A DNA stretch of 64,000 nt from Candidatus Marinacidobacterales bacterium (GTDB taxonomy: Bacteria > Acidobacteriota > Vicinamibacteria > Marinacidobacterales > SMYC01), in NCBI GenBank assembly GCA_965237955.1, contig OZ250169.1, positions 3,136,001 through 3,200,000 on the forward strand. The letters run 5' to 3'. The position numbers were made by a program, and so were the translations under genes. Shown here one piece after another: positions 6,109-62,513 of this stretch. Each line of letters starts with the position of its first letter. Within the stretch, counting starts at the first letter, position 1. The notes under the pieces are model-generated. The model worked only from the letters and a program-made list of their open reading frames with translations. It had not been told where the DNA came from and ran no database searches.

Positions 6109-6340
6109 GTCGGGAACTCCCTTCGATGGTTAGCGTAACCGGAGATACGAACAGGTTCAACACGATGTCAACTCTATCGGTATCAGGCGTAAACGTGCCG
6201 GGTAGTCCCTCGTTCGGGGGGGTGCACCCGAGCCGCGACGAGTGCAAGGCCGGGCTAAGCCTCGCTCCGGCTTGGCACGTTCTTTGGGATTCCTCGACAG
6301 AGCGCTCAGCCTGCGGCGACGGTGGAGTCAAGCCCATTCT

Positions 6341-7644
6341 CCTAAGAAACTACCGCCTGAACGACGTCGCCCGTTTGAGTGTCGATGAGAGCGAAACCGA
6401 GGTCAGCGGCGCGTTGGGTCAGGCGGCGCACGGCACGGGAGCGATCTTGAGCGTTGTAGGCGGCGGCCCCGGGGTCTTGATAGACGAGCCCATCCTTGAG
6501 AGTGCGGTAGACGAGAATGGCGAGCTTTCGAGCGGTGGCGGTGATGGCTTTGGATTTACCGACGCGATAGGCGAGACGTCGATAGTAGGCGCCGAGAGCG
6601 GTCTGTGTACGCCCGAGGCTGAGTGCGGCCATGCGGAGAATGCCAGCGGCGCGGTTTGCAGAGGGTTGTGTTTTCGAGCTGAGGAGTCGCCCGCCGGAGA
6701 TTTTGTTATTGGGCGCGAGGGTAAGCCAGGAAGTGAAGTGCTTTTCAGTAGGCCATCGGTTCATATCGGTCCGATCTCGGCGAGCAAGCGAAGCGCGGAA
6801 TAGGGTCCGATGGCGTCGATCTGGGAGAGGTCGACCCCGGCGATCTGGTGGAGGAGAGGCCGGAGCTCGAACCGAGGTTCGTTCACTCGGGGCTTGCGCG
6901 ATTTTCGAGGCGGTGGCAAGGAGGTGTTCGGGGTTGAGCGTTGAGCTAGAAGCTGCAGGTGCGATTCGATGGCCACGTCACAGGTTTGGATCTGGAGCTG
7001 AAAAGCATCAAAGAGTTCGAGGTTCTGCTTGAGAGCGAAGAGGTGCTCGGGGCGATAGTTGCCGGTGAGTGCAGCGGCGATCTCGGCCTCGGAGGACTGA
7101 CAACGGTGGTCACGGTGCTTGGCGAGCCGATGGGGGTCGGTTTGTCCGGCAACGATGTCTCGTAGAATCCGCATGCCAGTGACACCCGTGATATCAGTGA
7201 CCACAAGGTGGAGTTGAAGATTCATTTGCACGAGAGCCTTCTGCATGCGCTGGATATGGGTTACCGCACTCTGAACGAGAGTCTCTCGGTGGCGGAGGTA
7301 GCCACGCAGGGCGGTGATGGCTGCTTCGGGTCGAAAGCTTCCGCGGAGCAACCCCACGCTGTGCAACTCCCGGAGCCATTCGCAATCGCTGACATCGCTC
7401 TTGCGCCCCGGGACGTTTTTGACGTGGCGCGCGTTGACCAAGAGGACCTGGAAGCCACGGGCTTCGAGGATTTCATACAGGGCGATCCAGTAGACGCCGG
7501 TCGACTCCATCGCGACGCTCGTCACGCCGCAAGTCGCGAGCCGATGAAGATCGGCCGTGAAACTCCTGAAGGAACGGACCGGTTTAGGATCGCGCTCCGG
7601 TGGAACTGCGACGAAATGCTCGGCCGAGCCGCAATCGATCCCAG
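6341..7644 (-). pseudogene. IS110-family transposase copy, 5'-truncated and frameshifted
   Basis: Nearly identical to 37535-38847, with a 12-nt deletion and a 1-nt deletion at ~6770. Fused at ~7644 to an integrase fragment. Confidence 0.9.
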
Positions 7645-36483: not shown

Positions 36484-37533
36484 GCTCAGCCCGCATTCAT
36501 GCGGACCGCGGACCGCGGACCGCAGCATGCAGTATATGGTGCCAAGGATCGTCACGAGTACCCTGGGCTCCAAAGTTTAGGAGGATATACCTTGTTGAAG
36601 AACGGCATGTTGACATTCCTTGTTTTCACTCTTTGGTCGGTGCCGACCGCGGCGGTGCCCGCTGCCGAGGAGCCGGACGTGGAGACCGCCGCTCTCGAAG
36701 CTGAGATCCGCCAGGAGTTGTCTTTGCTACACTCGCGTCTGTTAAAAGCTCGAGGCGCTTTTGGACTCGTTGCAGGCAGGCAGTGGAGCCTCCGAAGTCG
36801 CACCCGGCGGGGACTCAGGTAAAACCGCCGTGGACGAGGCCGTTCCTCCCGCCCCGAAGCCCGCCATCTCTGGTCGTAGCGATCAGAAGCTGTCCAGGGG
36901 CGTGGCAAGCAGCGGAGGCCAGGCGATCTCGTTCACCGGCTTGCTTGACACCTATTTCACGTACAATACCAACAGTCCACCAGACGGCCACAACACGCTG
37001 TACTACACGAATCCGAATGCGCGGGGCTTCGGCTTAAATCAAGCCAAGATCGAGATCGACGCCAGCGGCGACGGGCCCATCGGATTCCGTTCCGACATCT
37101 GGTTCGGCTCCGGGGCGCGCCTGTTCCGAGACGGTCTTGAGCCGGGTCCACTCGAGGATGTGCTGTACCTGCAACAGGCGTATGGCTACTACCAGTTCTC
37201 GAACGGAGCGCAGCTCGATGTTGGCCTGTTTGGCACGATTGCTGGCCTGGAAGTGGCCGAGTCACACCTGAACTGGAACTACACCCGAGGCATCCTGTGG
37301 GCTTGGAACGAGCCCTTCTCGCACCTTGGCGCTCGGCTCAGCATGCCGATGACGGACACGTTCACGTCGACCGTCATGCTTGTCAACGGCTTCGACAACG
37401 CCTGGGATCAGAATACCGGCAAGTCGTACGGTCTGCAAGGTTCCTTCGCTCCAAACGATGGCTTCAACACGACCTTGACCTGGATTAATGGACCGGAGAA
37501 TTGGGGCACGAACGAAGGCTGGCTCAAGAACCT

Positions 37534-39183
37534 CCTAAGAAACTACCGCCTGAACGACGTCGCCCGTTTGAGTGTCGATGAGAGCGAAACCGAGGTCAGC
37601 GGCGCGTTGGGTCAGGCGGCGCACGGCACGGGAGCGATCTTGAGCGTTGTAGGCGGCGGCCCCGGGGTCTTGATAGACGAGCCCATCCTTGAGAGTGCGG
37701 TAGACGAGAATGGCGAGCTTTCGAGCGGTGGCGGTGATGGCTTTGGATTTACCGACGCGATAGGCGAGACGTCGATAGTAGGCGCCGAGAGCGGTCTGTG
37801 TACGCCCGAGGCTGAGTGCGGCCATGCGGAGAATGCCAGCGGCGCGGTTTGCAGAGGGTTGTGTTTTCGAGCTGAGGAGTCGCCCGCCGGAGATTTTGTT
37901 ATTGGGCGCGAGGGTAAGCCAGGAAGTGAAGTGCTTTTCAGTAGGCCATCGGTTCATATCGGTACCGATCTCGGCGAGCAAGCGAAGCGCGGAATAGGGT
38001 CCGATGGCGTCGATCTGGGAGAGGTCGACCCCGGCGATCTGGTGGAGGAGAGGCCGGAGCTCGAACCGAGGTTCGTTCACTCGGGGCTTGCGCGATTTTC
38101 GAGGCGGTGGCAAGGAGGTGTTCGGGGTTGAGCGTTGAGCTAGAAGCTGCAGGTGCGATTCGATGGCCACGTCACAGGTTTGGATCTGGAGCTGAAAAGC
38201 ATCAAAGAGTTCGAGGTTCTGCTTGAGAGCGAAGAGGTGCTCGGGGCGATAGTTGCCGGTGAGTGCAGCGGCGATCTCGGCCTCGGAGGACTGACAACGG
38301 TGGTCACGGTGCTTAGCGAGCCGATGGGGGTCGGTTTGTCCGGCAACGATGTCTCGTAGAATCCGCATGCCAGTGACACCCGTGATATCAGTGACCACAA
38401 GGTGGAGTTGAAGATTCATTTGCACGAGAGCCTTCTGCATGCGCTGGATATGGGTTACCGCACTCTGAACGAGAGTCTCTCGGTGGCGGAGGTAGCCACG
38501 CAGGGCGGTGATGGCTGCTTCGGGTCGAAAGCTTCCGCGGAGCAACCCCACGCTGTGCAACTCCCGGAGCCATTCGCAATCGCTGACATCGCTCTTGCGC
38601 CCCGGGACGTTTTTGACGAGGCGCGCGTTGACCAAGAGGACCTGGAAGCCACGGGCTTCGAGGATTTCATACAGGGCGATCCAGTAGACGCCGGTCGACT
38701 CCATCGCGACGCTCGTCACGCCGCAAGTCGCGAGCCAGTCGGCGAGCCGATGAAGATCGGCCGTGAAACTCCTGAAGGAACGGACCGGTTTAGGATCGCG
38801 CTCCGGTGGAACTGCGACGAAATGCTCGGCCGAGCCGCAATCGATCCCAGCGACATTCACGTTGATTTGCTTCAGGAGGGATGGAGAAGTCCGCTTCTTG
38901 GGTTGACGACGATTGTGCTTCATCAGATGCTCCTTCATACTTCGTGAAGCATCCGGGAACAGGGATGGGCATTCGTTACATTCTCCTAAACGGGATCACG
39001 CTCACGCGTGTCACCACTGACAGTGCCGAAACATCCCCGGGCCATGCTTAGTTACGGGCTGGATCGCACCAGTGTTGAGTCGGCCTCGGTTCCCGGATGC
39101 TCCCGCTATTGTATGAAACGGACGCTCCGTGCAGCACTGGAGTTTCTACCCAGATAGATCGCGAGCCCTGCGCGTACGATGCT
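37534..39183 (-). mobile_element. IS110-family element, full length (transposase 37535-38938)
   Basis: GIDCG, MESTGVYW, RKSDVSD (DEDD), SGG. CT core at both junctions, no TIR or TSD. Confidence 0.95.
38948..39101 (-). ncRNA. putative IS110 bridge RNA
   Basis: A 13-bp inverted repeat (38948-38960 / 39089-39101) encloses segments matching the target halves (AGTGTTG 39071-39077, CTTAGTT 39047-39053) and one donor half (CTCCTAA 38983-38989). Confidence 0.65.
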
Positions 39184-39981
39184 TAGTTGGAACGCCTACA
39201 AGATGCTGCACGAGCGGTTGGAGTTCATGGCCAACCTCGATTACATCCAGGCCAACGATCCAGAGTTCGGCAGCGCGATATCCTGGGGCATGGGCGGGTA
39301 CGCCCGCGGGCATGTCTCGGACCAGGTGCGCATCGCCTACCGCTTCGAATTCATGGACGACACCGATGCGCGGTCGACCGGATTCAAGCAGAACCTCCGG
39401 GAGAACACGTTCACGCTCGAGGTCCAGCCTGTGAAGGACGACCCACGCTTTCTGACGCGTATCGAATACCGCCGTGACTGGTCCGACCTCCCGTTCTTCA
39501 CCTGCGGCAGCTGCGCGAGTGGCATGGCGACGAAACAGGACACGTTCACGGTTGGTATGATGTGGGTCTTCGGACCCAGGCAATAGGGGTCGCCCGACGG
39601 CACGGGGCTGGGAGGGTGCCTTTTGAGAGCGTTGAGGTTGCGAACGTCCCGGAATAAGTTGCCTCGTGCGGGACGAAGATGAGGGCGCGAAAGGTGTGTG
39701 ATTTGTGCACATCGTTCAACGAGGTCCGTGGTCGGTGACCACGAAGCCCCCGGGCGGCTTGCGATGGAAGTCCGAGAGGTTGGTGAAGGATCGTTCTTTT
39801 TTCGCAGAAGCTTTCGCGGATGAAACGGGTAGCCCTTTTCTCGTTGGCTCGGCCTGAGAGGAGGCTTGGGACTGGAAGGTGGAAAAACATACCTGCTCCG
39901 CCAGCCACTCGCCGAGCGCCGACTTTGAGGTTGTCGTAGAACCAGCTACCTTTGGACATCCGGTGCTTCTGCCATCAAGTG

Positions 39982-41404
39982 ATGGAATGGACTCCTCCGC
40001 TGACATAGACGGCATCGATGTGCCAAAGTCAGTCGAATACGCATCGAAAAGGAGGAGTCCGAATGAAAGATACGACGATCGCTGTGGATCTTGCAAAGAA
40101 CGTCTTCGAGATTGCCATCTCGGGAGAAGCGGGGAAGGTGTCCAAGCGACTCCGTGTGAGTCGACCCAAATTGGTGTCGTTCTTTGCCAAACAGAGCGCT
40201 GCCACCGTGCTTCTCGAAGCCTGCGGCTCGGCTCACTTCTGGGCAAGGACGTTCCGAAGGTTGGGACAACGACGTCGTCCTGCTCCCACCTCACCTCGTG
40301 AGGCCGTATCGACGCGGGAGCAAGAACGACCGCGCCGACACGAAGGCGTTGCTCGAGGCCTACAGGAACGAGGAGCTTCTTCCCGTACCCATCAAGTCCG
40401 TGCACCAGCACACCCTCGCCGCGCTCCATCGCCTGCGCTCAGGATGGCTCTCCACACGGACCGCACGCATCAATGCCGTACGCGGGATCCTGCGCGAACT
40501 CGGATTCATCATCCCAAAGGGCGCTCACTTCGTCGTGCCCGCCCTCTTCGAACTCGTCGAAGACGCTGATTCTGATTTGCCCGACGTGCTCCGTTCGCAT
40601 CTCCGTGATGCCTGCTCCGAGATTCGAGAACTCAAGGACAAGTGCGCTGGCATCGAGCACGAGCTCAAGGCGCTCACCAAGCAGCTTCCTGAAGTCCAAC
40701 GACTTCTCGCCATTCCCGGCATCGGACTTCTGACCGCGACCGCCATCGTGGGCTTCGTCGGCGATCTTCGCCGCTTCCCATCGGGGCGCCGCTTCTCGAG
40801 CTACCTCGGCCTGGTTCCCAAGGAAAACTCCAGTGGCGACATTCGCCGCCTCGGACGCATCACCAAGCGTGGCGACTCCTACCTGCGTATGCTCCTCACC
40901 CAGGGCGGGCGCGCCGTGCTCCGCGCGGCGAACGTCAGTAAGAGCCCGCCCGACAAGCTCCGCGCCTGGGCTCGGAAGGTCCACCGCTCGCGGGGACACA
41001 ACAAGGCCGTGATTGCTGTCGCCAACAAACTCGCCCGGATCGTCTGGGCCGTCTCCACCCGCGAGGGTGAATTCCAGTCGGTGCCCGTGGCCGTTTAGAG
41101 GTTCCACTTTCGTGTTTTCTTTTTTCCCTTCCAAAAGAGGCTGCGACGATACCCATCCAACTGATGGCGTACCGGTCGGACCGGCGCGGGGTCAAGCCGA
41201 TAGCAACACTGGCCCTAAGAGGTCGTTCAAAGTGATTGGCTCCTCGCGCGCGGATTTTCCATCATGGCCCGGAGCACCCAAGACGCTCCTCACTGAGGCC
41301 GAAGATACGTTTGCAGTCTGACCCACTCGTCACGACGCGATGGATGCGCAGCTTCGATGGAAGATTTATTAAGAAAGGGGCTTGACTAGAGGAGTCCAGA
41401 TATG
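39982..41404 (+). mobile_element. IS1111-group (IS110 family) element; transposase 40063-41098 with 1-nt frameshift at ~40268
   Basis: IAVDLAK, LEACG, KNDRAD, IPGIG, GLVP..SSG. Subterminal IRs TGGACTCCTC (39988-39997) / GAGGAGTCCA (41389-41398). TG core and long 3' non-coding end. Confidence 0.93.
41160..41330 (+). ncRNA. putative IS1111 seek/bridge RNA
   Basis: Four guide-like segments match the reconstructed target and donor junctions (see findings). A second copy lies at ~56941-57075. Confidence 0.7.
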
Positions 41405-42808
41405 TTGCTACGCCGCATTTGAATGCTAGTGCCGGTTGGCCTGCGTGTGTCGGCGAACGCCATCGCGTCTAATAAGTGGTGTCGGCGTGCACACGAAGAT
41501 GTCCCTGAACGTCAGGCACCGCGTGGTCAGCCCAGCCGGCATCGCCGACAGAACTACGTCTCTCGAAATCAGGCTCAAACTCTAGCACGCGAGCGGGTTA
41601 CGCGGCAGTCACCAACACTTGATTGCGGAAGCACCGACTTTGCCCCGCAACGGACAGGCGCGATTGAGACATCTGCGATTTTTCACTTTGGATCGGCCCT
41701 GACCACGAGAGAACAGTGTCCTCGAAATTCTGGCTCAAACTCTAGCACGCAGGGGGGTTAGGGACTGGCCGCCAACACTCCTAAGAAACTACCGCCTGAA
41801 CGACGTCGCCCGTTTGAGTGTCGATGAGAGCGAAACCGAGGTCAGCGGCGCGTTGGGTCAGGCGGCGCACGGCACGGGAGCGATCTTGAGCGTTGTAGGC
41901 GGCGGCCCCGGGGTCTTGATAGACGAGCCCATCCTTGAGAGTGCGGTAGACGAGAATGGCGAGCTTTCGAGCGGTGGCGGTGATGGCTTTGGATTTACCG
42001 ACGCGATAGGCGAGACGTCGATAGTAGGCGCCGAGAGCGGTCTGTGTACGCCCGAGGCTGAGTGCGGCCATGCGGAGAATGCCAGCGGCCCGGTTTGCAG
42101 AGGGTTGTGTTTTCGAGCTGAGGAGCCACCCGCCGGAGATTTTGTTATTGGGCGCGAGGGTAAGCCAGGAAGTGAAGTGCTTTTCAGTAGGCCATCGGTT
42201 CATATCGGTGGGTTACCGCACTCTGAACGAGAGTCTCTCGGTGGCGGAGGTAGCCACGCAGGGCGGTGATGGCTGCTTCGGGTCGAAAGCTTCCGCGGAG
42301 CAACCCCACGCTGTGCAACTCCCGGAGCCATTCGCAATCGCTGACATCGCTCTTGCGCCCCGGGACGTTTTTGACGAGGCGCGCGTTGACCAAGAGGACC
42401 TGGAAGCCACGGGCTTCGAGGATTTCATACAGGGCGATCCAGTAGACGCCGGTCGACTCCATCGCGACGCTCGTCACGCCGCAAGTCGCGAGCCAGTCGG
42501 CGAGCCGATGAAGATCGGCCGTGAAACTCCTGAAGGAACGGACCGGTTTAGGATCGCGCTCCGGTGGAACTGCGACGAAATGCTCGGCCGAGCCGCAATC
42601 GATCCCAGCGACATTCACGTTGATTTGCTTCAGGAGGGATGGAGAAGTCCGCTTCTTGGGTTGACGACGATTGTGCTTCATCAGATGCTCCTTCATACTT
42701 CGTGAAGCATCCGGGAACAGGGATGGGCATTCGTTACATTCTCCTAAACGGGATCACGCTCACGCGTGTCACCACTGACAGTGCCGAAACATCCCCGGGC
42801 CATGCTTA

Positions 42809-54930: not shown

Positions 54931-55510
54931 TTCGTGACCTACTATGTGCTTGTCGTCATCGAGCTGTCTTCGCGAAAAGTGCACATTGCCGGAATCACTC
55001 CCGGGCCGGATGGCCCGTTCATGATGCAGGTCGGTCGGAATCTCACCGACCCGCTCGACGTCTTTCTGCGCGGCAATCGATTCCTCATTCTGGACCGCGA
55101 CAAGAAGTTCACCACGGAGTTTCGCGACTTGCTCGAGCACGCCGGAACTGACGTCATTCGGCTGCCGTACCGTTCGCCGAATCTGAACGCTTACGTCGAA
55201 AGGTTTGTTTTGTCGAGCAAGAGCGAGTGCCTGGAGCGGATGATCTTCTTCGGTGAGCCATCGCTGCGCCGGGCCGTCGCTGAGTTCATCCATCATTATC
55301 ATAGAGAGCGCAACCATCAAGGGCTGGGGAACGCGTTGCTCGAAGCGGAAGAATGCGTCGGCAGTCCTCACGGGAAGGTGCGATGTTGTAAGCGATTGGG
55401 CGGCTTGCTCCGTTATTACCACCGCGACGCGGCATAGGAGTTCGGGCGCGCAAGCTGGACGTAACGGATGGTCTGGAGGAGAGGTCTGCTCGGGATCGCC
55501 TATCGCAGAC
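54931..55510 (+). pseudogene. rve integrase 3' fragment
   Basis: Homologous to 7645-8230 and 48778-49360. Confidence 0.88.
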
Positions 55511-56943
55511 CCCGTCCTGTGCCAAAACTCGGCCCTTTTGAAATAGGCCATAAATCAGCAGTTTAGTGTCTGTGTTTGCGACCGGGCCAAGGGCCGTGGG
55601 CTTTACAATCGTCTTGGGCGGGCGGGTCGTCACCATGCAGATGACCACCTAGTCGAGAGCGAATATCGAAGCGTGTTCCTGAAGCGGTTTCCACGCTACG
55701 CCGGTCGAGCCCGCCGAGGGGCTACCGTCGCCGGCGACCATCTACGCGGCACGGCAGTAGTAGTTGAGAATGCCCACAAGTCGCTCTCGCGACACGATGG
55801 GGCCAGCGTCATTCGCGCTTGCCGGCAGAGGTGTGATGAGCTCGTTGCCGAGACCTTGGTGGTTCCGTTCTGTGTGATAGTGCACTACGTATTCGGTTAC
55901 CGCTGTGCGCAGGTGTCGCTCACTGAGAGGTACGAAGCGGTCGAGACACTCTCGACGTATGGAGAGAACGAATCTTTCCGCATATGCGTTCAGATTCGGA
56001 CTATTAGCGGGAAGGCGAAGGGGCTTCACGCCTGAATCTCTCAACAGCCCACGTACCGCCTCGGTGAATAGCGGGTCCCGGTCGTGGATGAGGTATCGCT
56101 TGCCAAGGAGGAAACCATCCCACATGTCAGTGAGGTTTCTTGCAACCTGCTTCATCCACTCCCCGTTGGGGTCCGACGTTATCCCACCGATGCACACGCA
56201 GCGAGTGGCGATATCGATGACAAACAGGACATGGTAGCGGACGAGCCCGAACGGGTTCACAACCTCGACGGTGAACAGGTCTGTCGCAGCGATGGCGCCC
56301 CAATGAGCCTTGATGAAGGTGCTCCACGACATGCTCCTGCCCCGCTCCGGCGCAGGAGCGATACCGTGCTCGGCGAGGAGCCTCTTGATAGTGTTGCGTC
56401 CGAGTTCATGTCCTAGGTTCTTGAGTGCGCCTCGCAGGCGCGTATATCCCCACGTCGGGTTCTCCCGCGCCACGCGCACAATGAGCTCACGGATGTCCTT
56501 CGCCGTCGGAGGTCGGCCTGGACTCCGGTTCTTGCTGCCATCGTACTTGGCTGCGATGAGGTGGCGGTACCAGCGCAGAAGCGTAGCGGGTGTGGCAACG
56601 GACGCAATCTGGGCCAGCGCCTCGCGGCCCAAAGCCTGGGCCTTGACGGCGAGCCTGCGCCGCTCGTCGTCCGAGAGACTGAGACGCTTGCCCCGAAGCC
56701 CGGCTCGGAGCACACGGTTCTCCTCTTGCTGGTAGTCGATCACATCCTGCTGCTGGCGGTTGACCCAGCCAGCTAGAACGAGCAGTAGGAATTGCACGTG
56801 GTACGTCATCATGGAGCTGAAGATAACACCCTCGGGCTAGACGATTGTAAAGCCTACGGCCCTTGGCCCCGGCGCAAACACAGACACTAAGCTGCTGATT
56901 TATGGCCTATTTCAAAAGGGCCGAGTTTTGGCACAGGACGGGG
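55511..56943 (-). mobile_element. rve-integrase element with ~105-bp TIRs; transposase 55742-56812
   Basis: Intact 356-aa DDE ORF (ATDLF, IHDRD, NAYAERF). 55511-55614 and 56840-56943 are long inverted repeats. Confidence 0.92.
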
Positions 56944-57509
56944 TCAAGCCGATAGCAACACTGGCCCTCAGAGGTCGTTCAAAGTGATTGGCTCCTCGCG
57001 CGCGGATTTTCCATCATGGCCCGGAGCACCCAAGACGCTCCTCACTGAGGCCGAAGATACGTTTGCAGTCTGACCCATTCGTCACGACGCGATGGATACG
57101 CAGCTTCGATGGAAGATTTATTAAGAAAGGGGCTTGACTAGAGGAGTCCAGATATGTTGCTACGCCGCGTTTGAATGCTAGTCCCCTGTATCAGAACAAA
57201 CTAGATAAAGCAGAGCTTGCCGAAACCATTCTAAGTGCATGAATCTTATGAATCTTATGGGCTGGCGAAAAGCCTAACTTTGTATAGTAATCAAAGATCC
57301 AGGGGACTAGTGTCAGTTGGCCTGCCTGTGTCGGCGAACGCCATAAATAAGGATGTCGGCGCGCATACGAAGATGTCTCTGAACGTCAAGCACCGCGTGG
57401 TAAGCTCAGCCGGCATCGCCGAAAGAACTGCGTCTCTGGAAATCAGGCTCAAACTCTAGCACGCGAGCGGGTTACGCGGTAGCCACCAACACTTGATTGC
57501 GGAAGCACC
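56941..57509. repeat. second copy of the IS1111 3' end plus IS1-like derivative
   Basis: Homologous to 41188-41635. Confidence 0.85.
57182..57306. mobile_element. 125-bp MITE
   Basis: TIR TCCCCTG(T/G)ATC and CTAG TSD (57178-57181, 57307-57310). Absent from the homologous site at ~41426. Confidence 0.85.
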
Positions 57510-57579: not shown

Positions 57580-58260
57580 TTAGCGTTTCTCGATGGGTTC
57601 GATCTTTCCGTCTCGCAAGGTCACGATCGACTGGGCGTGCTCCGCGACGTGACGCTCGTGGGTGACCACGACGATGGTGTGGCCGCGACGATGCAGACTG
57701 TCGAGTAGCGCCAGAATCTCCTCGCCGGTCGCGGTGTCGAGATTTCCCGTTGGCTCGTCGGCGAGAAGGATGGACGGCTCGTTGACGAGCGCCCGCGCCA
57801 TGCCGACGCGTTGGCGTTGCCCGCCGGAGAGCTCGTTCGGGCGGTGTTCGACGCGGTCGGCGAGGTCGACCTCGGCAAGTGCTTTGAGAGAGCGCTCGCG
57901 ACGCTCGTCACCGGCGACGCCCGCGTACACGAGCGGCAGCTCGACGTTGTGAAGCGCCGTCGCGCGCGCGAGCAGGTTGAAGGTCTGGAAGACGAAGCCT
58001 ATCTCCTGGTTTCGCACGACCGCGAGCTCGTCTTCCTCCATCGAGCTGACGTCGCGTTGCTTCAAGACATACCGGCCCCGCGTCGGGGTGTCGAGACAGC
58101 CGAGAAGGTTCAATAACGTGGATTTGCCCGAGCCCGACGGGCCCATGATCGCGACGTACTCGCCGCGCTCGATCTGGAGCTCTACGCCTTGAAGCGCGTG
58201 GATCTTGTTTGGCCCCATCTCGTAGGTTTTCCAAAGATCGGAGACTTCGATGAGATTCAT
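57580..58260 (-). CDS. MacB/LolD-type ABC transporter ATP-binding protein
   Basis: [30 protein letters not shown]. Confidence 0.97.
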
Positions 58261-59540
58261 TCGTGCCGCAACGCCTCGATGGGATCGAGCCGCGACGCTT
58301 TGATCGCAGGCGCCATACCGAAGATGAGCCCGACGCTCGCGGAAAAGCCCAGCCCGAGGGCGAACGACCACCACGGAAGAGAGATTGGAAAACCAGAGAG
58401 GAAATGGATGAGAAGACCCATCGCCGCTCCGAGCACCACGCCGAGGACGCCGCCGAGCGAAGTCAACGTCGACGCTTCGATGAGAAACTGACACAAAATC
58501 TCTCGTCGTTTCGCGCCCAACGCCTTACGGAGCCCGATCTCGTTGGTGCGCTCGGAGACCGACATCGTCATGATCGCCATGACGCCGATGCCCCCGACGA
58601 GGAGGGCTATCGAAGAGATGACGACGAGGGCAAGGAAAACCGCTTGGGTGGTTCGCTCCCACACACGCATCGCTGCGTCTTGGGTAACCAGGTCGAAGTC
58701 GTTCGGCTCGTCGAGTCGCAGGCCATGCCGGATGCGCATGAGCTCTTCGATCTGCTTCAATGCTTCATCTCGACCTCCGTCGCGTGGCACTGCGACGATC
58801 GTGACGTCCCGGTGCTCGCTGCCGTGAACCTTCCTCACGCGTTGTCCAAATTGGGTCTCGTACCTCGTATACGGAATCACCGCGAAATCGTCCTGCCCGA
58901 CGTTGAAACCCCCCGGGCTTGCCCGCTCGCCCATCACACCGACGACGGTGTACCGCCGCCCTGCGATTCGAACTGTCTTTCCCAGCGGGTCGACGAGGGG
59001 AAAAAGAGATCGGTACGGCCCTTGCCCGAGCACCACGACGCGGCGCCGGTGCCTCAGCTCGGCATCGGTGAAAAAACGCCCCATCTCGAGCGGAATGAAG
59101 CTCACCTGCGCGAAATATTCGGAAGCGCCGAATACCGCGACCCGCTTTGTCTTCTCACCGCGATAGTAGATTCGCTCGGTTTTGACGTCGACGCCACCCC
59201 CGAACATGACGTCGACAAAGCGGATGACGTCGAGTCGTTCGATCGCCCCCGCGTCCTCGGGCGAAAGGTTCGGCCTTCTGATGAGCTCGATGAACTCTTT
59301 GCCAGACATGAAGCTCATCCCACTGAACTTCACGATCGAGATCGTGTTCGGGCCGAGCTCTTCGATCATGGCCCGAAGCGAACGGTCGAAGCCGCGTACC
59401 AGCGACGTCATGCCGACGATGGCGGTGATGCCGATGATGACGCCCATGACGGTGAGGCCCGAGCGCAGCTTGTTGACGCGCAGCGTCTCGAACGCCATTC
59501 CGACGATCTCGCGAAGGAGAGCTAGGCGGATGAAGACCAC
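58257..59540 (-). CDS. MacB/FtsX-type ABC permease
   Basis: [49 protein letters not shown]. Confidence 0.96.
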
Positions 59541-59544
59541 TCCG

Positions 59545-60774
59545 CTACTCCTTCCTGAGCGCTTCGATCGGGCTCAGGCTCGCGGCCCGAGTCGCCGGGT
59601 AGATTCCAAAAAAGAGACCGACGACCGCGGTCATCGTTATCCCGAGCGCCACCGACCAAGCCTCGATGGCCGCAGGGATCGGCGTTGCCCGTTCGATCGC
59701 GAGCGCGACCCCGAACCCGAGGCCAGTACCGACGACGCCGCCCACGGTCGACAAAACGACCGATTCGGAAAGAATCTGCCAGATGATATCGCGACGACGG
59801 GCACCCAACGCCTTCCGCAAGCCGATCTCGCGAGTGCGCTCGGTGACCACCATCAACATGATGTTCATGATGACGATGCCGCCCACGACGAGAGAGAGAG
59901 CCACCACGCCGATGAGTACCGCGAAGATACCGGACGTCGCGGCCTCCCAGATGGCAAGGATGGTGCCTGACGTGAACATTCCGAAGTTGTCGTCCTCGGA
60001 CGGTTTCAGTTTGCGCTCGATGCGAAGCGCGAGCCGAGCCTCGTCCATGGCCGCCGTCATCCGACGCGCGTCGTCGGGTTTGACCATGAGCGACAAGCCA
60101 CGGCGGGACCCAAATATCTTCTGGAACGCGCCCAGGGGAATGATGGCAAACTCGTCCTGGGACTGACCGAAGACGGTTCCTTTTTTCTCGCTGACGCCAA
60201 CGACTCGAAAATGCTTACCTTCGATCTTGATGGTCTGGTCGAGGGGGTTCTTGCCTCCAAAGAGTCGGTCGGCAACACCCCATCCGATGACGGCGACGGG
60301 GCGCTTGCGCCGAACCTCAGCCGCGGTCGGAAGCCTGCCGTTCTCAGCGCCGTAGTTCGAGAAGCGGATGAAGTCCTCGCTAACGCCTTCGATACTGGCC
60401 CGCTCGAGCTCTTTGTTCCGGTAGCTAACCCTTCCGCTTTGCTGGACGCGAGCCATGACCGCGCTCACTCCAGTGGAGGACAAACGGCTGATGGCGTCTG
60501 CATCTCGAACGGTGATGCGTGGATTGAGACGTCGGGCGCGCTCCGCGTCGTCTTCGTTGGTAATGATCCCCACGCGCTCGATCATGAACGCATCGGCGCC
60601 AGCTTCGGAAAGGATGAAGTCGCTGACTTTGGCGTTCATGCCTCGTATCAGAGCGACGACCGCGATGATCGACGTCACCGCGACGATGTTGCCGAGCACG
60701 GTCAGAATGGATCGGAGCTTGTGCGACCACACGGCATCGAGCGCGAGCCGGATTGCTTCCAGGATCTTGGACAC
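59545..60774 (-). CDS. MacB/FtsX-type ABC permease
   Basis: [43 protein letters not shown]. Confidence 0.96.
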   Translation of the reverse strand: MSKILEAIRLALDAVWSHKLRSILTVLGNIVAVTSIIAVVALIRGMNAKVSDFILSEAGADAFMIERVGIITNEDDAERARRLNPRITVRDADAISRLSSTGVSAVMARVQQSGRVSYRNKELERASIEGVSEDFIRFSNYGAENGRLPTAAEVRRKRPVAVIGWGVADRLFGGKNPLDQTIKIEGKHFRVVGVSEKKGTVFGQSQDEFAIIPLGAFQKIFGSRRGLSLMVKPDDARRMTAAMDEARLALRIERKLKPSEDDNFGMFTSGTILAIWEAATSGIFAVLIGVVALSLVVGGIVIMNIMLMVVTERTREIGLRKALGARRRDIIWQILSESVVLSTVGGVVGTGLGFGVALAIERATPIPAAIEAWSVALGITMTAVVGLFFGIYPATRAASLSPIEALRKE

Positions 60775-60777
60775 GGG

Positions 60778-62109
60778 CTACTGCCAGAAGTAATCTGATT
60801 CGGGCTCTTCGAGCTTCACCCGAGCGCCGTCTGCGATCTCGCGCACCGCGCTGTAGGGCCCGGTAATGACCCCGTCGCCGGCGTCGAGGCCCGCGAGTAC
60901 TTCGAAATGTCGTTCTCCAGCGATCCCGATCGTGACGGGTGTGAAAACAGCCTCGCCGTCGCGGTGAACGAAGACTCCCTCGACTTCTTCGAGCCGATGT
61001 GCAGGTGGTACGGCGTCGCGGCGTTTGCCGTCGTTCTTGTCCTTCTTCTGGTGACGCACCCTGGTCCCATTCGAGTCGTATTCGAGCTCGCGCACGGTTA
61101 GAGCTTGGATTGGCACCGCGATCGTGTGCTCGCGCACGGCCGTCGTAATCTCCGCCGTGCATGAGAAATCCGGACGCACTCCGGGCACTTCGTCCGTCAA
61201 GGTTACTTCGACCACGAAATTCGTTCCTGTCTGACCGGTGTCGGCGCTCATGGCGTTTTGGCCTCGCGTGGCGCTCGATCCGATCTTCGTGACCTGCCCC
61301 TCGAACTCCCGGTCCGGCAACGCGTCGATGGTGATGGTGGCCGACTGCCCCAGACGCACGTCGACGATGTCGGTCTCGTCGACCTCGAGCTCCGCTTGGA
61401 TGACCGATAGGTCGGCGATCGTCAAAAGCACCGTGCCGGCGTTATTCATCGTGCCGACCACGACCGTCTCTCCTTGTTCGATGTTGAGACGTGTGATCAT
61501 GCCCGCCATCGGCGCGTCGATCGTCACCTTGCTCAAAACGTGTCGCGCGGTCCTAAGATTTGCGGTCTCCTGGGCGAGGCGTTCCTCCTGAACTCTCACC
61601 TCGGTCTCGCGCGCCTTGAGCTCGCTCCGGCGGACCTTGGCCTCGCTCTCGGCGCGGTCTAGCGACTCTCTCGAAACGACCTCGTCTTCGTGCAGCTTGC
61701 GCGAACGGGTCTCGTTGCGAAGCGAGAGCTCCAAGTTCGCCCGTGCGGTCTCGACGGCCACGCGTGCTGCGTTCAGCGCTTCACGCCCGGCACGAAGCCC
61801 AGCCTCGCCCATCTGTACCGCACTTTCCGCGGCCTCGGGGTCGATGAGCATCAGAAACTGGCCGCGATCAACTTGCTCGCCTTCGTAGACGGCGAGCTCG
61901 GTGACCCGGCCCATCGTGTCCGCACTGATGTTGACGAGCCGTTTGGGCTGGATCTTGCCGGACGCGGAGACGACCGCCGTGAGAGTGCGATGTTCGATTG
62001 CCTCGACCTGAACTTCTGGCCCGCGGGATTGCTGGTAGTAGCGGTTCGCAAAAAAGACCGCTGCGGCGAGTAGCACGACTCCAACGCCGATGACGATGTT
62101 GCGTTTCAT
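60778..62109 (-). CDS. MacA-like periplasmic adaptor (membrane fusion protein)
   Basis: N-terminal TM, VSASGKIQP, helical hairpin, IDAPMAG, VDETDI..V..GQ. Confidence 0.95.
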   Translation of the reverse strand: MKRNIVIGVGVVLLAAAVFFANRYYQQSRGPEVQVEAIEHRTLTAVVSASGKIQPKRLVNISADTMGRVTELAVYEGEQVDRGQFLMLIDPEAAESAVQMGEAGLRAGREALNAARVAVETARANLELSLRNETRSRKLHEDEVVSRESLDRAESEAKVRRSELKARETEVRVQEERLAQETANLRTARHVLSKVTIDAPMAGMITRLNIEQGETVVVGTMNNAGTVLLTIADLSVIQAELEVDETDIVDVRLGQSATITIDALPDREFEGQVTKIGSSATRGQNAMSADTGQTGTNFVVEVTLTDEVPGVRPDFSCTAEITTAVREHTIAVPIQALTVRELEYDSNGTRVRHQKKDKNDGKRRDAVPPAHRLEEVEGVFVHRDGEAVFTPVTIGIAGERHFEVLAGLDAGDGVITGPYSAVREIADGARVKLEEPESDYFWQ

Positions 62110-62513
62110 GGGATGGGTCACGTTGAGCGACTCGTTATGGACTCCGGCCACTCGCGTCGGACTGGCGCGGGATTACGCGGGCGATAAGGAGCCGCACAGG
62201 CCTCCGAGGGTGGACGAGTGCAGGAGTCGCCGCCATGGAGTCCACAGCGGATAGAGACGAAATCGCTTATGCGGATACTCCCTCTGGTTGTGGCTTCGTA
62301 GGCCGAGGCCCCAAAAGGACACAAAATCAAACCTCACCCCCCATGGGGAGAGGCGGCCAAGTGGTCAGCGACAATTAAAACTTCCGCCGGGAAGAAAGGT
62401 TTAACGCTGGACAGCCAAGAGTCGCGAATTGCATGTTCCTTCAGTAGGCCTTCAAATTCTTGGAGGCAGGCTTTGCGTCGCGATTCGACTGGAAGGGCCT
62501 GCAAAAGCTGCTT

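Follow-up and report, generated by a model that had tools for sequence, protein, structure and literature searches.

An IS1111-type insertion sequence of a Candidatus Marinacidobacterales bacterium carries a predicted guide RNA with four covarying guides and targets the right terminal repeat of an IS1-like element

The window (the whole 64,000-nt stretch of DNA analysed here) contains an IS1111-type insertion sequence inserted in a MITE of an IS1-like element (Table 1). It belongs to a genome of 8.13 Mb with 60% G+C, in which 22 left-end and 24 right-end matches and an alignment of the 16 full copies defined the bounds of the element. The sub-terminal inverted repeats are perfect over 10 bp and differ at position 11 (A versus G). 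The extensions outside them follow the IS1111-type pattern, with 7 nt (TGATGGA) on the left and 3 nt (ATA) on the right. In the convention of PMC11187229, as its available text sets it out, the left extension is the right donor, and it would be read by the predicted right donor guide (RDG). The long downstream non-coding region of the IS1111 group is also present, with 304 nt 3′ of the transposase gene versus 83 nt 5′ of it. Insertions occupy one position of the host repeat in a fixed orientation and without target duplication, as counted over 25 left and 18 right junctions. A leader inverted repeat (GGCATC ... GTGCC, 40007–40030) is kept in most homologues, down to approximately 50% protein identity.

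Table 1. Positions of the insertion sequence, its predicted RNA and its target in the window.
Feature	Position	Strand	Remarks
Left target flank	39962..39979	+	Outer portion of the right terminal repeat (IS1-like host MITE) that the insertion interrupts
Whole IS1111-type insertion sequence	39980..41402	+	1423 nt here; 1425 nt in most copies
Left end	39980..39997	+	7-nt extension TGATGGA, then left sub-terminal inverted repeat TGGACTCCTC (39988-39997)
DEDD/Tnp transposase gene	40063..41098	+	Frameshifted here by one extra A at 40268
Predicted bridge/seek RNA, ~168 nt	41165..41332	+	Covariance model R1 match of 164.9 bits (sequence in training set)
Predicted helix and arms	Closing helix 41174-41181/41316-41323; target arm 41185-41248; donor arm 41250-41314	+	Helix covariation
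Right target guide (RTG), predicted	41201..41210	+	TAGCAACACT; would pair with target top strand, -2 to +8
Inner hairpin of target loop (GGCC/GGTC)	41211..41224	+	Helix 4, 97.0% of cells paired
Left target guide (LTG), predicted	41227..41234	+	TCAAAGTG; would pair with target bottom strand
Right donor guide (RDG), predicted	41257..41265	+	TTCCATCAT; would pair with top strand of left end
Left donor guide (LDG), predicted	41303..41309	+	AGATACG; AGATA matches right end
Right end	41382..41402	+	-35-like TTGACT (41382-41387), right sub-terminal repeat GAGGAGTCCA (41389-41398), terminal AGATA
Rest of host MITE	41403..41635	+	Contains right target flank TGTTGCTA (41403) and, ending at 41635, the second terminal repeat
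Second window copy, 5′-truncated	56939..57152	+	Most of the RNA and the right end; left side cut by rve_3 element

The transposase belongs to the IS110 family. It matched the IS110-family model NF033542 with 308.9 bits (cut-off 140) and the Pfam domains PF01548 (47.2 bits) and PF02371 (87.8 bits), and it combines a DEDD RuvC domain with a Tnp domain carrying the catalytic serine. Residues D9, E52, D89, D92 and S257 were invariant across 15 homologues, and the length of 343 aa falls within the range of the IS1111 group (330–350 aa). The predicted structure (pLDDT 88.5) best matched IS621 (E = 1.2e-12) and ISCro4 (E = 1.5e-12). The best named plasmid match to the protein was ISPa25 (46.3%). A sequence search of the PDB with the transposase returned only two matches, neither of them an IS1111 protein, and the IS1111 mechanism is less settled than that of IS621. 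A reading made earlier from the sequence alone (the sequence-only reading) had noticed the frameshift of the window copy. The single extra A was confirmed, but the repair that had been called for is unnecessary, since 14 of the 16 full copies encode the intact protein. The extra A is absent from the other 15 full copies and from the contigs of six of eight public runs. The window copy is the most diverged of the full copies.

The same reading had counted the second window copy as conservation of the guides. All four strings are indeed present there (at 56953, 56979, 57010 and 57055), but the fragment differs from the main copy in 3/218 bases (98.6% identical) and therefore adds no independent support. 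Near-identical elements were found in genomes titled Candidatus Marinacidobacterales, and among 41 related genomes, 20 yielded a match at E ≤ 0.001, mostly a distant one.

Other mobile elements lie nearby. A second, longer IS110-type transposase gene (467 aa; 37535–38938, minus strand) splits a BBP2 porin gene (36761–39586); copies related to it are located at 6332–7556 and, in two frames directly after the host MITE, at 41771–42696. The rve_3 integrase-core element (55508–56945) has inverted ends of approximately 120 nt, and several further ends of this kind lie in the window. The right end of this element truncates the second RNA copy, removing its 5′ helix. An ABC transporter cluster (57580–62151, minus strand) encodes an ATPase, two MacB/FtsX permeases and an HlyD-type adaptor.

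The insertion sequence targets an IS1-like element and its MITEs at their right terminal repeat. The sequence-only reading had read the guide-matched sequence but missed this identity. All left junctions are preceded by the same 18 nt, and the flanks vary further out. The possibility that this conserved flank is part of the insertion sequence was rejected, as the 18-mer heads 206 termini in the genome, 25 of them followed by the insertion sequence and 181 empty. These termini are the ends of MITEs of 165–250 nt (the host MITE would measure 251 nt without the insertion) and of an element of 1197 bp that has a single frame of 350 aa. The best model for this frame was the IS1 transposase model NF033558 (78.8 bits against a cut-off of 100); its best plasmid matches were at 27–31%, and two of the 10 listed were annotated as IS1. 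Elements of the IS1 family generate target duplications of 8–9 bp. The host repeats measure approximately 26 nt, and duplicated bases numbered three or fewer in 39/39 end pairs; since these pairs showed no target duplication, we call the host IS1-like rather than IS1. In this abundant IS1-like MITE family, fusion of an end to that of an rve_3 element is frequent.

The insertion sequence uses the right end of the IS1-like element, and this end overlaps the host stop codon. From the 24 right ends, 18 run into TGTTGCTA and the other six into the element's own 3′ part. The guide-matched sequence (TGTTGCT) was found at 18/18 true right junctions versus 13/181 empty termini, the remaining empty termini being mostly left-type ends, one or two bases off. 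The Fisher value for this preference (1.2e-17) is overstated because some copies share flanks, having moved with the host, and the 18 junctions represent fewer than 18 events for the same reason. No exact empty 15-nt target is left in the source genome; the uninterrupted target was seen in the contigs of four of eight public runs (X1, X2, X3 and X5). The IS1111-type elements IS4321 and IS5075, which Partridge and Hall reportedly described in 2003 at one position inside the terminal repeats of Tn21-family transposons, offer a parallel by description, as they too insert at a single site within a terminal inverted repeat belonging to a different mobile element. In contrast to them, the element studied here has an IS1-like element and its MITEs as host instead of a Tn21-family transposon, and uses the right repeat only.

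The 3′ non-coding region is predicted to encode a bridge/seek RNA. Homologues were collected from related genomes, 400 genomes of the phylum (22 matching at 1e-60), GTDB contigs and 80 of 579 metagenome matches. The structure was drawn by hand from a single fold and the alignment, with pairs counted afterwards, because RNAalifold recovered only 10 pairs on the MAFFT alignment and the single-sequence fold was unremarkable relative to shuffles (z = −1.33). On the MAFFT alignment (24 sequences), the resulting seven-helix structure paired 85.3% of cells, and both sides had changed in 17 of its 36 pairs; none of 500 shuffles and no slid control reached its score. The model-fitted alignment had 90.1% of cells paired, a value to be read in light of its fitting to the drawn structure. 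The helices of the donor arm were the most conserved. A covariance model gave 94 matches among the 98 loci searched, 25 places in the source genome (G000), and a match of 108.6 bits to the 3′ region of ISPa25. An Rfam scan of positions 39500–42000 returned no match at E up to 1. Contigs from two RNA-labelled public runs (X18 and X12) cover the region in pieces, although assembled contigs cannot show expression.

Four segments had been proposed as guides from the sequence alone, TAGCAACACT at 41201, TCAAAGTG at 41227, TCCATCAT at 41258 and AGATACG at 41303, and all are located there, as is the hairpin between the first two (GGCC at 41211, GGTC at 41221). The right donor match had been given one base short and comprises 9 nt. 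In the LTG, AAGTG is in register with the target, and TC may pair via a 1-nt bulge; in the LDG, the final two bases (CG) do not match the TG of the donor. The guides lie between helices, with mean unpaired probabilities of 0.67 (RTG), 0.73 (LTG) and 0.63 (RDG) versus ≤0.02 for three stems, but part of the LDG is paired in the single-sequence fold (unpaired probability 0.44). When the 168-nt RNA region was dinucleotide-shuffled 5,000 times, the 10-nt reverse-complement match to the target was reached once, the 9-nt donor match four times and all four guide matches together never. The 5-nt exact same-strand matches were reached in 3,270 and 2,099 shuffles. These same-strand segments are not significant alone, and two of the four guides thus rest on loop position and covariation.

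For the covariation analysis, 92 loci were parsed, of which 68 had both ends and 65 remained after identical guide pairs were dropped. By hand and on the basis of earlier parses, we corrected the flanks of two rows and the guides of three, and the left end of one row was dropped. Scores were higher for cognate than for non-cognate pairings of the RTG (7.95 versus 5.77), LTG (4.23 versus 2.40), RDG (6.62 versus 6.24) and LDG (4.99 versus 4.55), and in each case the excess was reached in none of 20,000 permutations, in which relatedness was ignored. The same result was obtained with 46 elements held out from the first alignment, and an earlier test with 19 elements agreed. The effect per element was moderate: the cognate target was best or tied for 27/65 RTGs and 25/65 LTGs, partly because many relatives flank attC-like sequences. 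With helices that covary and guides that covary with their targets or ends, the covariance check suggested by the sequence-only reading upheld its IS1111 type, the 3′ guide RNA, the order of target loop then donor loop, and all four guide assignments.

The register of the RTG slides among homologues, its last base facing −2 in 16, −1 in 20, +1 in 28 and +2 in one (n = 65); unlike the RTG, the LTG keeps one register across the loci. Right flanks with GTTAG in L125, L127, L132, L160, L163 and other loci resemble the attC-type targets of ISKpn4 and ISPst6.

Could the host repeat instead be chosen by the protein, binding the IS1-like terminal repeat or its transposase, with the RNA matches arising by chance? 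Among relatives, 52 of the 58 listed left flanks are in the host repeat, where the conserved 18 nt extend over more than the guide reads, as such a choice would predict. However, the insertion sequence almost never uses left-type termini, although their outer 18 nt are the same, and the guides covary with unrelated targets. The remaining 6/58 insertions lie outside the repeat, two of them with a guide-matched 12-mer; L064 and L065 are inserted between TCAAG and TGTTGCT in unrelated DNA. We consider choice by the protein very improbable. Near-cognate sites with one mismatch are sometimes used (L032, with TGTTGGC; L086; L024).

It is also conceivable that only the target loop works, as a short seekRNA, with the ends recognised by the protein via the sub-terminal repeats and the donor matches being relic or minor. 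An 82-nt seekRNA was enough for ISEc11 transposition according to the available text of PMC11187229, the donor signal is small (the RDG scores above), and the last two bases of the LDG equal the first two of the donor in just 3/65 elements. Against this, the first five bases of the LDG are identical to the final five of the right end in 81/82 elements, following it through five variants (AGATA, 65; ATATA, 11 plus one wobble; ATACA, three; AGACA, one; ATACC, one). Changes in the RDG likewise accompany changes in the left end (C with G at +1 in 4/5 G-starting ends; T with A at +6 in 13), and the most conserved helices are those of the donor arm. A seekRNA acting through its target loop only is unlikely in our judgement. 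We assign a probability of roughly 90% to the reading that this stretch is the guide-bearing core of a predicted bridge/seek RNA, which would steer the transposase to the IS1-like right repeat and to the element's own joined ends.

The source genome also contains a sister element (L108, G000:C1:5245300-5247800; 94% protein identity) with other target guides. Its right flank differs from that of the window family and matches the L108 guides; the left match is weak, and the element is present as a single copy. L108 and the window element are a natural reprogramming pair in one chromosome. In another variant at 94–95% (L084, L005 and L024), the LDG ends in TG, one-base changes in the RDG and left end stay wobble-compatible, and six insertions lie outside the host repeat.

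All 18 true right junctions start with TG, as the left end does, and a shared TG core had been read from the sequence alone. An IS621-like exchange of both strands around a 2-nt core would account for it: IS621 and ISPpu9 recombine at a shared dinucleotide (PMC11208160 and PMC12288879, in their available text), and a G at +2 is common to both junctions in 46/65 homologues. The window family itself has this shared core, but most of its clade does not. The two junctions share a dinucleotide in only 8/65 homologues, leaving 57/65 without one, and any shifted boundary gives ≤7/65. Furthermore, 28/65 homologues combine a left TG with a right CG and 0/65 the reverse, which a staggered two-strand exchange over mismatched cores should also produce. 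We therefore regard the IS621-like exchange as quite unlikely here, and the TG "core" of the window element appears to be incidental. The asymmetry of the junctions fits a transfer of the top strand only; a blunt two-strand exchange would leave the same pattern.

The dinucleotide at the end of the LDG equals that of the LTG in 57 elements and that of the right flank in 37 (n = 65), and both loops usually end in CG, the target consensus. The idea that the last two bases of the LDG strictly track the target held only partly, CG being nearly fixed (60/65): the five LDGs without a CG end all equal the right flank, and the window element and L166 keep CG versus flanks of TG and GG. As the LDG ends in the dinucleotide of the target so much more often than in that of the donor, the donor loop may be tuned to the integrated junction of right end and target, i.e., to copying out. 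We tentatively suggest, at somewhat less than even odds, that the clade is core-independent, with transfer of the top strand alone and any target dinucleotide accepted. No paper on a coreless IS1111 element was found by title or abstract opening in the literature searched.

The right end was also fused to internal sites of the element, at 10 distinct junctions whose second base was always G (seven TG, two CG and one GG). They were found in G000 (~1134011, 3027775, 3052308-3052996 and 7864497) and in L054 and L059-L062. These junctions create tandem copies of the RNA-bearing 3′ part, with four RNA copies at one locus. They are likely misfired end-joining events; in likeness, the 10 sites scored 3.6 to the left end versus 3.5 to the target.

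We propose the following course of events from the sequences, copy census, target preference and covariation of helices and guides described above, taking the circle, the junction promoter, the production and binding of the RNA, and the catalysis from known IS1111 elements. The element would be copied out as a circle, in which the joined ends would form a promoter (TTGACT, 18 nt, TGGAAT) that transcribes the gene and the RNA. The right end would contribute half of this predicted promoter; a TTG is located 20–22 nt from the right end in 45/65 homologues, and a promoter scan of the linear element gave no sites. An end-to-end circle junction was found neither in the genome nor among the listed joints of eight public runs, which does not establish its absence, as contigs drop rare forms. 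[quoted passage not shown] Top strands would be cut after the AGATA of the right end and 18 nt inside the host repeat, and then exchanged. Completion would likely follow by replication, requiring no shared core and leaving no target duplication. The window copy is probably a dead, older copy, for which the intact copies elsewhere would supply the enzyme.

The element shares with the 3′ seekRNA elements ISEc11, ISKpn4, ISPst6, ISPa11 and ISPa25 (Siddiquee et al. 2024, PMC11187229) a DEDD transposase of approximately 340 aa, the long downstream non-coding region, sub-terminal repeats with 7-nt and 3-nt extensions, a top-strand match located 5′ of the bottom-strand match in the RNA, the lack of target duplication and natural reprogramming among relatives. 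It differs from them in its target, an IS1-like terminal repeat rather than attC, REP or the ISEc11 site, and its sub-terminal repeat matches at 10/11 positions. As far as its available text goes, PMC11187229 assigned target matches only; here, donor guides were also read, and covary. With IS621 and ISCro4 (PMC11208160, PMC13626964; PDB 8wt9 and 9t56), the element shares the protein fold (TM ~0.67) and the four-guide logic of target loop then donor loop. The proteins, however, are only ~20% identical, the RNA lies 3′ of the gene, the guide order within each loop is reversed, and most of the clade has no shared core. For CazIS110-1, top-strand copy-out and top-strand integration were demonstrated experimentally, with tandem repeats as by-products (10.1101/2025.10.25.684509, available text). 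The same mode, considered here from junction sequences only, would explain both the junction asymmetry and the 3′ tandem duplications.

The sequence-only reading had presented the element as a candidate new programmable recombinase. The individual system is new, but its architecture, an IS1111 3′ RNA and a bridge system, was already described (PMC11187229 and PMC11208160, in their available text; the background literature also includes PMC13604230), and the RNA of ISPa25 fits the same covariance model. We class it as a clear further case of an RNA-guided system that is known and likely reprogrammable, rather than as a new kind. [quoted passage not shown]

With 14 intact copies, a near-saturated target, covariation support for all four guides and a sister element at 94% identity, this is an unusually well-documented natural IS1111 bridge system. 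The junction statistics predict top-strand transfer without a shared core, which is directly testable. If the core-independent reading is true, the element would provide a programmable recombinase of 343 aa that is not bound by the core requirement of IS621, along with a natural reprogrammed pair in one genome that is ready for such a test. The right ends of IS1-like elements join the mobile-element ends that are parasitised by insertion sequences of the RNA-guided type.
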